This document shows, in pieces, positions 2,067-6,461 of a stretch of 10,560 bases of DNA (within the stretch, counting starts at the first letter, position 1; each line of letters opens with the position of its first letter). A model generated the notes under the pieces. The model was not told the DNA's origin, did not search any database, and worked only from the letters and a program-made list of their open reading frames with translations. Made by a program: the position numbers and the translations under genes. This DNA is from Candidatus Margulisiibacteriota bacterium (GTDB taxonomy: Bacteria > Margulisbacteria > Marinamargulisbacteria > JBFWNS01): positions 1 through 10,560 of the forward strand of contig JBFWNS010000011.1 of assembly GCA_050250935.1 (NCBI GenBank), read 5' to 3'.

Positions 2067-2097
2067 TTGACAAACGCTGGGGATTTCAAAATACTAT
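2067..2097 (+). promoter_or_regulatory. Sigma70-type promoter for the precursor/MNIO operon
   Basis: Perfect -35 TTGACA at 2067-2072. Candidate -10 is AATACT at 2090-2095 (17-nt spacer) or TACTAT at 2092-2097 (19-nt spacer). RBS AAGGAG at 2115-2120. Confidence 0.6.
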
Positions 2098-2125
2098 ACG
2101 CATCCCATTTTTTTAAGGAGTTCTT

Positions 2126-2425
2126 ATGAACAAGAGTTTGATGTCTGCTGCTGTTGCTGGCATTTTGTTGACAAGTGTTTCTGCTTCCTCAATTTTTGCT
2201 CAAGCTCATGCTGCCAAACCAGCAGAAGCCACTAAAAAGGTAAAAGCTGAAGCCAAGAAAGACTCTTGCAAAAGCAAAGAATGCAAAGATTGCAAAGAGA
2301 AATGCAAAGGCAAAGAAAAGTGTAAAGGTAAAGAAGGCTGCAAAGGCAAAGAAAAATGCAAAAGCAAAGCCAAAGAAGCTTGCAAAGGCAAAGAAGGCTG
2401 CAAAGCCCAAGACGCTAAAAAATAA
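2126..2425 (+). CDS. Secreted Cys/Lys-rich RiPP precursor for an MNIO (bufferin BufA2 / HvfA-like)
   Basis: Strong RBS. Sec-type signal peptide MNKSLMSAAVAGILLTSVSASSIFA(QAHA). Nine Cys, each followed by Lys, and four CKGKE motifs. Lies directly upstream of DUF692-DUF2063-DoxX. Confidence 0.85.
   Translation: MNKSLMSAAVAGILLTSVSASSIFAQAHAAKPAEATKKVKAEAKKDSCKSKECKDCKEKCKGKEKCKGKEGCKGKEKCKSKAKEACKGKEGCKAQDAKK
2303..2407 (+). repeat. In-frame ~18-nt tandem repeat TGYAAAGGYAAAGAA(AAR/GGC) encoding CKGKE(K/G)
   Basis: Units at 2303-2320, 2321-2338 and 2339-2356, a 24-nt variant at 2357-2380, another unit at 2381-2398 and a partial unit at 2399-2407. Confidence 0.9.
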
Positions 2426-2441
2426 GTTTTAGCACTTACCC

Positions 2442-2471
2442 GGCCCCTGGAAACAGGGGCCTTTTTATTTT
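2442..2471 (+). terminator. Intrinsic terminator between the precursor and the MNIO gene
   Basis: Perfect 8-bp stem GGCCCCTG / CAGGGGCC with a GAAA loop (2442-2461), followed by TTTTTATTTT. Confidence 0.85.
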
Positions 2472-2488
2472 ATCTGTGGTGGTGTCCC

Positions 2489-3346
2489 ATTCAAAATCAA
2501 TCTAGACGTCCTTTTCTTGGCTTCGGGCTAGGCCTTCGGGCAGAGCATTACGACGATTTATTGTCGGATACTTACGCGGGCCAAGTGGATTGGCTTGAGA
2601 TTATTTCTGAAAATTTTTTGTTTGAGGGTACCCGATCACAGTATTACTTGGATCAATTTCTTGAGCGTTATCCCATTATTGCCCACGGCGTTGGGCTTTC
2701 AATTGGCAGTGCAGATGCCCTAGACTGGGACTATTTGGCACGGCTCAAAAAATTAATTCACAAACTCGATCCGCCTTGGGTTTCGGATCATTTGTGTTGG
2801 GGACACGTCAAGGGACAGCATTTTCATAATCTGATGCCCTTGCCCTATACAGCCGAAACAGCTCGCTATGTGGCAGGCCGGATTGCCATTGTTCAGGACT
2901 ATCTTGAAAAACCGTTTATTATTGAAAACGTGTCCAGTTATGCCGAATTCAAAAGCTCGGAAATGACAGAATGGGACTTTGTGGCCCAAATTTTGGACCA
3001 GGCCGATTGTGGGATGTTATTTGATGTGAACAATGTTTATGTTTCTGCGGTTAACCATGAGTTCTCGCCAGACACCTATTTAAATGCCATCGATCCAAGC
3101 AGGGTGTATCAGTTTCATTTGGCTGGGCACCGTCGCAAAGAGAATTTTATTTTGGATTCCCATGATTCTCCGGTGTGTCGGGATGTTTGGGACCTGTATG
3201 CCAAAGCCGTTGCTCGTTTTGGCGACGTCTCGTTAATGATCGAGCGTGATGATGACATCCCCCCTTTAAGCGAGCTGTTGATCGAGCTTAACGAAGCCAA
3301 GACCATACACCATGAAACCAGAACCAAAACCGCCAGCAGAGCTTAA
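2489..3346 (+). CDS. DUF692 multinuclear non-heme iron-dependent oxidative enzyme (MNIO; BufB/HvfB/MbnB family); start uncertain
   Basis: Motifs WLEIISENF, HGVGLSIGS, VSDHLCW, LMPLPY, IENVSSY, FDVNNVYVSAVNH, HLAGH, DSH and IERDDDIP. The family N-terminus PFLGFGLGLRAEHY (2510-2551) is in frame upstream of the ORF-track TTG at 2561. The start is tentatively placed at ATT 2489. Confidence 0.93.
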   Translation: MQNQSRRPFLGFGLGLRAEHYDDLLSDTYAGQVDWLEIISENFLFEGTRSQYYLDQFLERYPIIAHGVGLSIGSADALDWDYLARLKKLIHKLDPPWVSDHLCWGHVKGQHFHNLMPLPYTAETARYVAGRIAIVQDYLEKPFIIENVSSYAEFKSSEMTEWDFVAQILDQADCGMLFDVNNVYVSAVNHEFSPDTYLNAIDPSRVYQFHLAGHRRKENFILDSHDSPVCRDVWDLYAKAVARFGDVSLMIERDDDIPPLSELLIELNEAKTIHHETRTKTASRA

Positions 3347-4079
3347 AGACATCCAAGAATGGATGGCCGATGTTGTGTCCTTTGATCAACCGCTTACTGT
3401 GGCAATGCGAACCGCTGCCAAAAAACGCATTACCGCCACATCCAAACAAAGTGCAGAAGACCGCATCGAAATCTACACCAACGATTTTTGGCCACGCTGT
3501 TACGAATCCCTAGCCGAAGATTTTCCTTCCTTGGTTGCGTTGTGGGGAGAATCCGACTTTGACGTATGGATGACACGATACATAAAAGCCCACCCCTCGG
3601 TTTCTTATACCTTGTATTATCTGGGCCAATTTCTTCCTCACTTTTTAGAAACCCATTATCACGAAGCGAATCGAGAAATTGTCCTTGATGAAGCGCTTTA
3701 CGACTGGGCCTGTAGTTGGGCCTATTTTGCGGATGCAAAACCTTATTTTGATCCCGAGCAATTGTCTGAGGAAGCAAAAGCCCAAGTGGCCACGTTGCCG
3801 CTGATTCTTCAACCTCATGTCACCTTACTTTCTTCTAGAAGCAAAAGTCGTATTGTCTATCGAAACCGAGAGTTTAAGGTTTGTTGCGAGACCATTCCGA
3901 AACAATTTCTTAAAATTTTGGCCTTGCTGGATCAGTCTTTGAGTCTTGAAGCAGCATTAACAGATCCTTCAATAACCGGTAAACTGGGACGACTTAATCT
4001 GGAAAAATGGTTTGCGTATGCCATTGGCTCTGGATGGTTCCAGATGCCCCCAATACCCACCAAAAGGAGTCCGCAATGA
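3312..4079 (+). CDS. DUF2063 MNIO partner protein (BufC/HvfC-like, peptide-recognition partner)
   Basis: L..IQ.W at the N-terminus and RIEIY.N......SLAEDFP.L....G...F......YI.AHPS.S.TL...G.FLP.FL, as in DUF2063. Overlaps the MNIO gene by 35 nt. Confidence 0.85.
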   Translation: MKPEPKPPAELKDIQEWMADVVSFDQPLTVAMRTAAKKRITATSKQSAEDRIEIYTNDFWPRCYESLAEDFPSLVALWGESDFDVWMTRYIKAHPSVSYTLYYLGQFLPHFLETHYHEANREIVLDEALYDWACSWAYFADAKPYFDPEQLSEEAKAQVATLPLILQPHVTLLSSRSKSRIVYRNREFKVCCETIPKQFLKILALLDQSLSLEAALTDPSITGKLGRLNLEKWFAYAIGSGWFQMPPIPTKRSPQ

Positions 4080-4537
4080 TTCGACATTTACTGGCCAAAA
4101 CCTTCCATCTGATTTCTGCTCAACGAAGCTATTGGCTCCTCTTGATTCGCGTTACTCTGGGGATTATTTTTATTCAGACAGGATTTGGCAAACTGACCCA
4201 TTTGGATGCTACAACGGACTTTTTTCAAAGTATCGGTGTTCCTTTTCCCTTTTATAACGCTATTTTGGCTTCTTCGACGGAATTGATTGGCGGGGCTTGT
4301 TTGATTCTTGGTTTTTTCACCCGAATGGTTGTGTTGCCCCTATCGTTTACGATGGTAGTTGCCATTTTTACAGCCTTACGAGGCGATATTCATAGCCTTT
4401 CCGACTTTGTTCGTCTTCAAGAATGGGACTACATTTTGATGTTTCTCTTGCTCTTTTTTACAGGAGCCGGGAAGTTCAGCTTGGACAACATTTTGGCCAA
4501 GTGGTTTAACCTTTACCCTGACGACTATAAGGTTTAG
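4076..4537 (+). CDS. DoxX family membrane protein (BufD-like)
   Basis: LLIRVTLGIIFIQTGFGKL, F.SIGVPFP, ELIGG.CLILG.FTR and GAGKFSLD. Start moved to ATG 4076, which forms an ATGA overlap with the DUF2063 stop and follows AAGGAG at 4064-4069. Confidence 0.92.
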   Translation: MIRHLLAKTFHLISAQRSYWLLLIRVTLGIIFIQTGFGKLTHLDATTDFFQSIGVPFPFYNAILASSTELIGGACLILGFFTRMVVLPLSFTMVVAIFTALRGDIHSLSDFVRLQEWDYILMFLLLFFTGAGKFSLDNILAKWFNLYPDDYKV

Positions 4538-5385
4538 CCTTTAACCATCTTTCGAAAAGTTGTTGGACTTTGGCCCGTGTTGCGTTTAAAGTACCGACAA
4601 AATTGGTCAGCATCTTCAAATTGCAAAGCAACGGCGATGCTAGACAGGGGCTTATCGGTGTGTGCCAGTTCTCGTTTGGCTTCCAAAATCAATCGACTTC
4701 GAATCCAGTCTCCGACCGTTCGTCCGGTTTTTTCTTTAACCACTTGGTTCAAATGTTGTGGGGAAACAAACATGAGTTTGGCATAATCCGACACCTGTTG
4801 GTGGGTCTTAAAATAAAAAGCCAGTAACTTCTTGAATTGCACCACTATATCTTCATTGGGTTTTTCAGGGCGAACTTCTCTGCACAACCGCGAAAGTTTA
4901 AGCAGCATAATTCTTAAATACCCAGCCAATAAATCCAATCGATCGGGTTCATCATTTTTAAATTCGAGTTCCATTTCTTTTAAAAGGGCCTGAAAAGGTG
5001 CTGGTGTGTCCAAATCCAAATAGGGGAGGGCATCAAAAATCGAAAAAAAAGCCAAGGGCGAAAAGTCCGAGCTTGGCCAAGCTTTTAATAAAAATTCTTC
5101 GGAAAACGAGATAAAAATCCCTTTAACACCCACTGGTTTTCGCCAAAAGTGTACTGCCCCTGGATACATAAAAAACAAACGGTTGTGACGAAGGGGATGA
5201 TCTTCAAAATCGATTACCCGAACGCCAGTCCCTTCCAGGATCCAAATAATCTCATAAAATTTCACGGTGTGGGGACGCGGATGTTGTACATAGGGATTTG
5301 AATCATCAAAAAAATGAATATCAAACACAGGCGCTGTGTGTAGCCAAGACGGATTTAAATGATGCTGAATCTCTTGCCTCGCCAT
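4534..5385 (-). CDS. AraC family transcriptional regulator
   Basis: N-terminal cupin-like domain (PH...FYEIIWI.EG.G...IDF..H, PGAVH). C-terminal double HTH (VSDYAKLMFVSPQHLN..VK..TG, EAKREL......IA..L.F.D...F.RYFKR.TG.SP..FRK). Confidence 0.93.
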   Translation of the reverse strand: MARQEIQHHLNPSWLHTAPVFDIHFFDDSNPYVQHPRPHTVKFYEIIWILEGTGVRVIDFEDHPLRHNRLFFMYPGAVHFWRKPVGVKGIFISFSEEFLLKAWPSSDFSPLAFFSIFDALPYLDLDTPAPFQALLKEMELEFKNDEPDRLDLLAGYLRIMLLKLSRLCREVRPEKPNEDIVVQFKKLLAFYFKTHQQVSDYAKLMFVSPQHLNQVVKEKTGRTVGDWIRSRLILEAKRELAHTDKPLSSIAVALQFEDADQFCRYFKRNTGQSPTTFRKMVKG

Positions 5386-5390
5386 AAGGT

Positions 5391-6461
5391 TTATCCTGCG
5401 TTAATCTGACTGACGATATACTGGGCTGTGTCCACAGTGGGTTTAAATCGCATCAGGGCTTGTCGTTGGGCTTGCCAAGGCTCTGGCTCTAGAGTTCGAA
5501 GAACAGCGTCTGTAACGCCGTCTACGGTAACCTGTCCCACCATCTCTGGAACCAAGGCTTCATTGGCAATGCGATTGGGTAGGGCATAAAACCGTTTTTG
5601 CTTGGCCAGGAACCAAACGATTATTTTTTTAACCAGTAGACCCAACCCTGGAATTTTTCCAACGAGGCCAGCCAGGCCGTCCAAAATAATCAGATCAACA
5701 CGGTTGGTGGGAACCAGAATCAGCATGGGCAAATGCATGTACATGGCCTCGGCTGTGTTTGTTCCCGGCAGCGAAACCAATAAATCCGATTCGGCCATGG
5801 TGGCCAAAGAATCGCCTCGGCTAAATGATACGTGTCCCAGCTGATGTTCAAACTGAAGCCGATTTAACTGGGTTTCAGAAATAAACGGAGAAACCATAAC
5901 CGTGGTTTTAAGTTCTGGACGACGGTGGTTAAGTTGTTGAATGACCTCGCCAATAAAGGGTAAAAAAGCTTCAAAATGGGGAGGCCTAGAACCACAAAAA
6001 AACAAAATATGCTGATGCCGTTCTGGACCTTTTTGAATGGCCTTAAGCGCCACGCGTGCAGCCATTAAATCCCCAATTTTTTGTTTAAAAAAGGTTTGCT
6101 TAAATCCCATGCCCAAAGACCGTTGATGTTCCGTATAGCCAAAGACTGGATAGCCCCACTTAAGCCCAAACAATTGGCTATAAAAGGGATCTCCACCCAA
6201 ATACAACACAGCTCCATCTGTACCCCATTTTTTAGAACTCAACAACAATTTGAAGGTTTCTTTGGGCGAAAAAACCTCGGAAACACCTTCGATGGCTTGT
6301 GCCCGCGCTTTCTCTTGGCCGCTGGCATATTGGCATGGGGTTAAGGCGACAATAACCCTGGCATCGGGGCGGCTGGCTTTAAATAAACTCACCACCGGCT
6401 CCACCCAACTGGTCAACTCTCCGGGGGAATTCGATTGAATGATCAGGGTAAACGGCGTCAT
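5391..6461 (-). CDS. Lipid-A-disaccharide synthase-like (LpxB-related) GT-B glycosyltransferase
   Basis: SNSPGELTSWVEP N-terminus, YLGGD, GSR, PGTNTAE and ALPNRIA....VPE. These resemble the divergent LpxB-like proteins of Cyanobacteria and other diderm Terrabacteria. Confidence 0.7.
   Translation of the reverse strand: MTPFTLIIQSNSPGELTSWVEPVVSLFKASRPDARVIVALTPCQYASGQEKARAQAIEGVSEVFSPKETFKLLLSSKKWGTDGAVLYLGGDPFYSQLFGLKWGYPVFGYTEHQRSLGMGFKQTFFKQKIGDLMAARVALKAIQKGPERHQHILFFCGSRPPHFEAFLPFIGEVIQQLNHRRPELKTTVMVSPFISETQLNRLQFEHQLGHVSFSRGDSLATMAESDLLVSLPGTNTAEAMYMHLPMLILVPTNRVDLIILDGLAGLVGKIPGLGLLVKKIIVWFLAKQKRFYALPNRIANEALVPEMVGQVTVDGVTDAVLRTLEPEPWQAQRQALMRFKPTVDTAQYIVSQINAG

Follow-up and report, generated by a model that had tools for sequence, protein, structure and literature searches.

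A bufferin-2-related Cys-Lys captophorin operon with a probable AUU-initiated maturase gene in a likely marinamargulisbacterial genome

A 10,560-nt stretch of contig JBFWNS010000011.1 (assembly GCA_050250935.1), called the window throughout, was analysed to characterise a four-gene operon at positions 2126-4537. The operon is, with high probability, an intact member of the Cys-Lys (bufferin-2-related) kind of captophorin operon and, as read from its sequence, would make a 5-thiooxazole copper buffer. The open reading frame (ORF) list and profile searches gave four genes in one orientation, coding for a precursor peptide, an MNIO maturase, a DUF2063 partner and a DoxX protein (Table 1). An initial annotation, made from the sequence alone, had described four co-oriented genes of which the last three overlap, and this was borne out, with an overlap of 35 nt between MNIO and partner and of ATGA between partner and DoxX. 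Its assignment to the MNIO, DUF2063 and DoxX class of metal-buffering RiPPs (peptides made on the ribosome and modified after translation) is supported by the family matches, from which copper binding and Cys modification are predicted.

The enzyme matched Pfam PF05114 (DUF692) with 349 bits (cut-off 25) and passed the BufB model NF050167 (343 bits, cut-off 310), and it stayed under the cut-offs of the other equivalog models, HvfB NF003818 (265 vs 360), MbnB (71 vs 325), ChrH (46 vs 600) and ApyH (81 vs 400); no TglH-specific model was among its profile matches. All seven motifs that had been reported as intact were present, H66 (HG), SDH99-101, IEN145, DVNN179, HLAGH210, DSH223 and ERD252, and their key residues H66, H101, E146, D179, N182, H210, D223, H225, E252 and D254 were invariant across an alignment of 54 sequences. 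These residues are taken to be iron ligands, as in MbnB and TglH. The enzyme was modelled with a pLDDT of 93, and the best fold matches were 3BWW, TglH and MbnB.

Cys-Lys enzymes have an Asp at the site of FonB Phe250 and have lost the second N-terminal Arg (PMC13097082). The enzyme reads ERDD and GLGLRA where the aligned 3BWW reads ERDF and RR; the Phe250 position was placed by motif via 3BWW, with FonB itself outside the alignment. The ERD motif is followed by D in 52 of 62 other enzyme matches and by F in none (0/62). As the Asp of the Cys-Lys captophorin enzymes is present, the enzyme was placed in the Buf2-related group, and it is predicted to make 5-thiooxazole and not oxazolone. All characterised MNIO-PME1 systems yield 5-thiooxazoles, and the structure of oxazolin has been revised to 5-thiooxazole (PMC13097082). 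The match to bufferin and oxazolin systems proposed at first was therefore kept for the BufB type and the Cys-Lys, Buf2-related side and given up for the Lys-Cys oxazolin/HvfA group, and of the two products named then, a thiooxazole is predicted and an oxazolone-type heterocycle is less likely in view of the oxazolin revision.

The searches for DUF2063 and DoxX proposed with the initial annotation also gave matches over cut-off, as did that for DUF692. The partner protein scored 51.7 bits against PF09836 (cut-off 27.2) and failed the HvfC model NF050145 (28 bits, cut-off 142). Single-sequence phmmer returned no match in the PDB for it; a profile of 57 sequences matched 3DEE, the PME1 structure, with E 4.7e-4. 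In the partner model (pLDDT 94) the C-terminal domain is made of three strands and helices, and its best Foldseek match was again 3DEE (E 4.4e-5, TM 0.56/0.69). The DoxX protein scored 77.6 bits against PF07681 (cut-off 23.6) and 82.1 against NF050144 (cut-off 80).

The precursor is 99 residues long. Its N-terminus is hydrophobic, A-x-A sites are at 25-27 and 27-29, and a lipobox Cys is missing. The signal was assessed by hydropathy and the A-x-A rule and is likely of Sec type, with cleavage after AQA27 or AHA29. The Cys residues are at 48, 53, 56, 60, 66, 72, 78, 86 and 92 (spacings 4, 2, 3, 5, 5, 5, 7, 5), and Lys directly follows all nine, for which composition gives a probability of about 2e-4. 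The core comes after a Lys-rich linker, consists mostly of six-residue C-K-G-K-x-x repeats and contains no EGKCG motif, and Pfam gave no match to DUF2282, the precursor domain of Buf1, in the operon. In a related contig from another study (X4, about 95% identical) the listed changes in the precursor preserve the frame; they include deletions of 3 and 6 nt, which may drop one Cys.

Of 514 candidates in a search for precursor homologues, three matched, and their repeat design is the same. A motif search of Data set S2 of PMC13097082 found similar six-residue precursors listed as 'CK-style', for example WP_083270191.1 (KDGCK x5) and WP_058459518.1 (KNGCK x6); the exact repeats CKGKEGCK and CKGKEKCK were not found in it. 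'Margulis' had no match in two searched supplementary files of the same paper, and neither 'Margulis' nor three repeat motifs had one in two supplements of PMC12452194. Precursors with six-residue Cys-Lys repeats are thus catalogued already, and the literature search, whose coverage leaves out most subscription journals, found no biochemical study of them and no paper on their product. The exact precursor is missing from a collection of 15 billion proteins in which its neighbour proteins are present, so some gene callers skip it or call it differently. ESM Atlas holds it; the best feature matches there (0.85-0.87, mostly Verrucomicrobiota) were under the bar of 0.9, and structure matches are meaningless at its pLDDT of 0.32.

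Among known systems the operon most resembles the Cys-Lys captophorins (PMC13097082), with which it shares MNIO, PME1 and DoxX, an exported precursor with many six-residue Cys-Lys repeats and the Asp at the FonB-Phe250 site; it differs in its likely margulisbacterial host, in its unlisted exact repeats and in an enzyme with a putative AUU start. Bufferin 2 of Caulobacter vibrioides (BufA2-BufB2-BufC2, BUF_6/12Cys), as described in PMC11626156 and PMC12452194, has in common with it a BufB-type enzyme, the order A-B-C(-D), a Sec signal, a C-x5-C unit with Lys after Cys and the lack of a linked sigma factor or NrsF. Unlike bufferin 2, which has 6 or 12 Cys with a terminal disulfide, the precursor here carries its nine Cys in simple repeats and fails NF050166, and DoxX is present here and missing from the C. 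vibrioides buf2 operon. Buf1 is set apart by a DUF2282 precursor with 4 Cys, which is missing here, and by a linked ECF sigma factor/NrsF, of which NrsF was not found in the genome. Oxazolin (HvfABC), fontiphorin, gonophorin and bulbicupramide share the exported repeat-type precursor, the MNIO-PME1 pair and DoxX/HvfX. This Lys-Cys group, however, has the motif Lys-Cys (EGKCG) where the motif here is Cys-Lys (EGCKG), and the enzyme here, under the HvfB cut-off, is without their Phe and second Arg.

Two features had been missed by the initial annotation, a terminator-like hairpin between the precursor and enzyme genes and the lack of ATG, GTG or TTG in the enzyme gene before the first barrel strand. 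The MNIO frame is open from 2426, and the first such codon is TTG 2561; the conserved GLGLR strand begins 12 codons earlier. Because none precedes that strand, the gene needs a non-canonical start, and translation most likely begins at ATT (AUU) 2489, to judge from the surrounding sequence. This codon lies 6 nt after GGTGG, whose pairing with the genome's own 16S tail (-8.8 kcal/mol) gives the strongest Shine-Dalgarno score among all in-frame positions between 2426 and 2561; 2.5% of 2,826 internal ATT codons score as high, as do 7.7% of 831 ORF starts. The score is common to four codons (2489 to 2498), of which ATT alone is near-cognate. ATT 2489 precedes the GLGLR motif by 12 codons, which is the usual distance. 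The residues L10, G11, G13, G15 and R17, invariant in 54 homologues, are all encoded upstream of TTG 2561, and in the model strand 1 of the barrel is made of residues 12-15. The host infC, a gene with a classic AUU start, shows the same layout of Shine-Dalgarno and ATT (AAGGAGG, 8 nt, ATT; G000:C1 near 428931, minus strand, locus L175). Gene calls of this contig differ, with 285 aa from 2489 at NCBI and 253 aa in Logan, both of them predictions.

The N-terminal motif was located in 83 of 94 loci. Of these, only this locus, L083 and L089 have no canonical start at a distance of 30 codons or less; the last two have longer open frames and were checked to 30 codons. All 12 class relatives (L005 among them) have a canonical start before the GLGLR-type motif. 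X4 is collinear and gap-free over 2478-3749, with 63 differences; 19 changes are listed for the enzyme frame, 17 of them at third positions, and of the 18 listed codons that are changed 17 are silent. The part at 2478-2523 is identical, as deduced from the listed and total differences. X1 matches the window exactly and may be its source, so it was not counted as independent; X2 and X3 are without coverage of 2478-2560, and X5-X7, whose small shares say nothing about habitat or expression, without coverage of the enzyme start. The enzyme start was covered by no RNA contig. The genome and metagenome collections contained no relative above 61% and 57% identity, respectively, so that the AUU codon could not be traced further.

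Other explanations of the missing start were tried and set aside. An assembly error was rejected on the collinearity of X4. Starts at TTG 2561 or GTG 2585 give shorter products (261 and 253 aa) which still pass NF050167 but miss the five invariant residues and strand 1. CTG 2474 is less likely as a start, its score of -5.7 being due to a G-run within the terminator stem, and for a programmed +1 frameshift at 2500-2505 it was reasoned that AUC/UCU permits no re-pairing of the tRNA.

The enzyme gene might instead be decaying, a one-base insertion near 2492-2503 having cut off a start at GTG 2482 so that only unmodified precursor is made. GTG 2476, 2479 and 2482 do start a short frame, shifted by one base from that of the enzyme and with its stop at 2503-2505, and the canonical starts of all 12 relatives would fit such a loss. 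We hold decay to be very improbable, however: the GTG codons have no usable Shine-Dalgarno (-1.1 for 2482, +1.9 for 2479, and -4.7 for 2476 that is due to the terminator stem), X4 keeps the frame with its listed changes mostly at third positions, ATT stands at the usual distance from the motif and the active-site residues are all intact. An AUU start of an intact gene is thus preferred. It would resemble those of infC, pcnB and Enterococcus ebpA (PMC4447247), in which a rare start replaces AUG and lower translation is expected; it differs in that the start here is deduced and that the 12 class relatives use normal starts, mostly with a weak Shine-Dalgarno. In E. coli, initiation at AUU is put at ~1-2% of that at AUG (10.1101/063800), and the AUU start of ebpA is reported to reduce its expression (PMC4447247). 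No RiPP maturase gene with an AUU start was found described in the literature search.

Of the own promoter and ribosome-binding site with which the operon had been credited, the Shine-Dalgarno of the precursor gene is clear (AAGGAG, -7.4 kcal/mol), and the promoter-like site is weak on its own, being one of 9 regional matches vs 3.9 +/- 1.9 in shuffles. X4 carries four listed substitutions in the promoter spacer (2075, 2076, 2079, 2080) and none in the hexamers. The hairpin at 2442-2461 separates the precursor gene from the other three. A hairpin with a U-tract between precursor and enzyme was also found in 4 of 11 relatives examined, two others had a strong hairpin with no U run and five had little or no spacer. 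Precursor Shine-Dalgarno scores were -7.4 to -10.3 in 7/7 relatives scored, and those of the enzyme were weaker than -3.6 in 7/10 (-4.9, -5.5 and -7.4 in the others). These sequences suggest that an excess of peptide over enzyme is a trait of the class, reached by differing means. In X4 the terminator loop (2450-2453) reads TTTC vs GAAA, the exact reverse complement, on an unchanged stem, probably a micro-inversion of the hairpin (one contig). Positions 2432-2441 can pair with 2476-2485, which may mask the enzyme Shine-Dalgarno on read-through RNA; with this outer helix the unpaired probability there was 0.15-0.27, and the predicted folding of the region does not surpass that of shuffles (z -1.2).

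The operon would work as follows. Transcription would begin from near 2067-2095, and most transcripts would end or be trimmed at the hairpin (2442-2470), leaving more precursor message than enzyme message. On the read-through message the enzyme would start at the weak AUU codon and stay scarce, with partner and DoxX translated via the overlapping genes. The MNIO-partner dimer, with O2 and a mixed-valent iron centre, would oxidise several or all of the nine Cys-Lys sites, each Cys losing 4 H (-4.03 Da). Signal peptidase would free a Lys-rich and probably unstructured peptide of 70-72 residues, which would chelate copper with a preference for Cu(I); outside the cytoplasm the peptide, likely exported by Sec, would bind excess copper. 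Its calculated mass is 7786.0 Da if it begins at residue 28 and 7577.9 Da if at residue 30, and 7749.7 or 7541.6 Da, respectively, with all nine Cys modified.

A heme-copper oxidase (COX1, confirmed by hidden Markov model) is encoded in the genome, which makes O2 use and a demand for copper plausible. Across 41 genomes of the same class COX1 was found in 33, among them all 13 carriers of a full-length BufB, and full BufB in 0/8 genomes without COX1; the nominal one-sided P of about 0.03 overstates the association, the genomes being related and incomplete. The presence of COX1 in all carriers fits the enzyme's need for O2. Around COX1 (G000:C6 80000-87000) lie ORFs like Alternative complex III, SCO and cytochrome oxidase, these names other than COX1 being a reading of the sequences. 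The genome further encodes three MerR-HTH frames of 243-415 aa (candidates for a CueR-type regulator), one multicopper-oxidase domain and two RND pumps that miss the CusA cut-off, with an internal stop in one match. No CopA-type ATPase was found in this 95.85%-complete genome.

By the same chemistry the peptide could store or relay copper for the heme-copper oxidase, or buffer another metal or redox stress, and we give this a small probability. The distribution of COX1 and BufB and the missing CopA would suit such a role, and a function of multi-site bufferins as reservoirs is speculated on in PMC11626156; yet COX1 occurs in most of the class anyway, and CopA is rare throughout it (over cut-off in 4/41), which makes its absence unspecific, and a multicopper-oxidase domain is present. 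A buffer for excess copper is the reading kept here.

Several observations weigh against it. The precursor fails the BufA2 model NF050166 (22.1 bits, cut-off 60), in agreement with its first description as divergent, and lacks the 6-Cys layout of the sole Cys-Lys precursor found characterised; for both reasons, how many Cys are modified can only be guessed. Neither NrsF nor CsoR turned up in the genome, and no copper regulator is linked to the operon. A related Microbulbifer cluster is reported to be undetected in the proteome whether copper was added or not (PMC12538549), and a role in copper stress is therefore not to be assumed. The X4 evidence for the AUU start comes from one contig with a depth of about 4.5-5 and one unplaced difference near the contig end (2460-2489).

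A non-proteobacterial host had been suggested, and the host is likely a member of the Marinamargulisbacteria, as placed from database labels and shared N-termini. The best enzyme matches include proteins labelled Candidatus Margulisbacteria and Marinamargulisbacteria, the first-listed genome match is labelled UBP8, a name for Marinamargulisbacteria (10.1101/521922), and these labelled enzymes have N-termini in common with loci of the same-class genomes. Aerobic respiration has been predicted for the marinamargulisbacterial group (PMC6349859). PF05114 was matched in 14 of the 41 genomes and a full-length enzyme found in 13, this genome included. The 12 relatives retain the order precursor-enzyme-partner, with 2-10 Cys and varying genomic neighbourhoods. 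Counting this one, 12 class precursors have 70 core Cys between them, of which 51 stand directly before a Lys, and none of seven class-relative precursors scanned passed NF050166. Among the class precursors (L004 / L002-L013) the number of Cys goes from 2, in a chain rich in Ala, Lys and Thr, up to 10; several use C-S, C-Q, C-N or C-P in place of C-K, and two enzymes have ERDE, not ERDD. The novelty is smaller than had been thought possible, since Data set S2 of PMC13097082 contains precursors of the same design and, within the host class, the operon is common.

In a FastTree of 77 enzymes, 12 class enzymes fell in one clade of 33 (support 0.997) together with L018 and 20 database proteins, and this clade nests inside the Buf2-associated MNIOs, with deep nodes poorly supported; L005, L014, L015, most odd-numbered loci of L016-L094, all metagenome loci and the characterised enzymes were not part of the tree. 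A different chemistry on the repeat precursor, either oxazolone-thioamide formation or partial oxidation with disulfides, with a product unlike the bufferins, could be argued from this separate clade, from identities of about 60% or less between the class enzymes and all other matches and from the lack of a biochemical study of the repeat subtype in the literature found. Given that every characterised MNIO-PME1 pair makes 5-thiooxazole (PMC13097082) and that the enzyme passes the BufB equivalog and is far under the MbnB cut-off, we regard it as highly unlikely, and 5-thiooxazole formation is retained. L018 (2900-3300) has a closely similar pair of enzyme and partner (61% identity for the enzyme), and directly upstream no ORF of at least 50 aa codes for a Cys-rich precursor. 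L014 (G010) is a distant PF05114 match (53.8 bits) within a sugar-nucleotide/NeuB-type cluster and not a bufferin operon.

The operon stands among housekeeping genes, as had been noted, with rplY, pyrE and pyrF upstream and a convergent AraC gene, an LpxB-like gene, manC, tRNA-Arg, a LolA-like gene, guaA and guaB3 downstream. The AraC-family regulator (4534-5385, minus strand) converges on the operon, its stop overlapping the DoxX stop by 4 nt; no AraC gene was seen beside the cassette in 12 relatives (1.5-kb flanks examined). The LpxB-like protein (5391-6461, minus strand), which adjoins manC, is a partial match only (39.8 bits, Pfam) and far under the TIGR00215 cut-off. A mis-binned contig was rejected, as 5 housekeeping genes of the window occur once each in the genome, guaB3 runs on into contig C9 and the tetranucleotide distance ranks at the 78th percentile among 174 genome segments. 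No second PF05114 match and no second precursor of this kind were found in the genome. Landfill-metagenome runs of one study contain the stretch, and one of them may be its source.

Table 1. Positions of the operon and its predicted signals in the window.
Feature	Position	Strand	Details
Predicted sigma70-like promoter	2067..2095	+	TTGACA 2067-2072, 17-bp spacer, AATACT 2090-2095; 10/12
Precursor (BufA-like), 99 aa	2126..2425	+	Sec-type signal (likely), Lys-rich linker, 9-Cys core
Intrinsic-terminator-like hairpin and U-rich tail	2442..2470	+	8 bp stem, GAAA loop, -18.9 kcal/mol
Shine-Dalgarno-like GGTGGTG, then putative ATT (AUU) start of the MNIO gene	2478..2491	+	-8.8 kcal/mol
MNIO / DUF692 maturase (BufB type, Cys-Lys subgroup), 285 aa	2489..3346	+	PF05114, NF050167
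Partner protein (PME1 / BufC type), DUF2063 and C-terminal RRE-like domain, 255 aa	3312..4079	+	PF09836, 3DEE matches
DoxX / HvfX-family membrane protein (BufD type), 153 aa	4076..4537	+	PF07681 and NF050144 over cut-off

A wider proposal is offered as speculation. The Marinamargulisbacteria, aerobic relatives of the cyanobacteria, may keep a captophorin lineage-wide in which an expandable C-x-G-K-x-x repeat (2-10 Cys across genomes) has taken the place of the precursor's folded Buf2 scaffold, giving an unstructured poly-thiooxazole copper sponge or store that would replace CopA in small genomes. A very high ratio of peptide to enzyme would be set post-transcriptionally, by a terminator and a weak Shine-Dalgarno in the relatives and by a terminator and an IF3-sensitive AUU here.

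The operon class is established, and the gain is incremental. No paper linking Margulisbacteria with MNIO, DUF692 or bufferin was found within the coverage of the literature search, and the operon extends the captophorins to the Margulisbacteria, with the enzyme in about a third of the sampled class genomes. The public 253-aa gene call omits the first barrel strand, and a product cloned from it would probably be a dead enzyme. The short precursor would be a handy substrate for asking whether every repeat is modified and how many Cu an unstructured product may bind.

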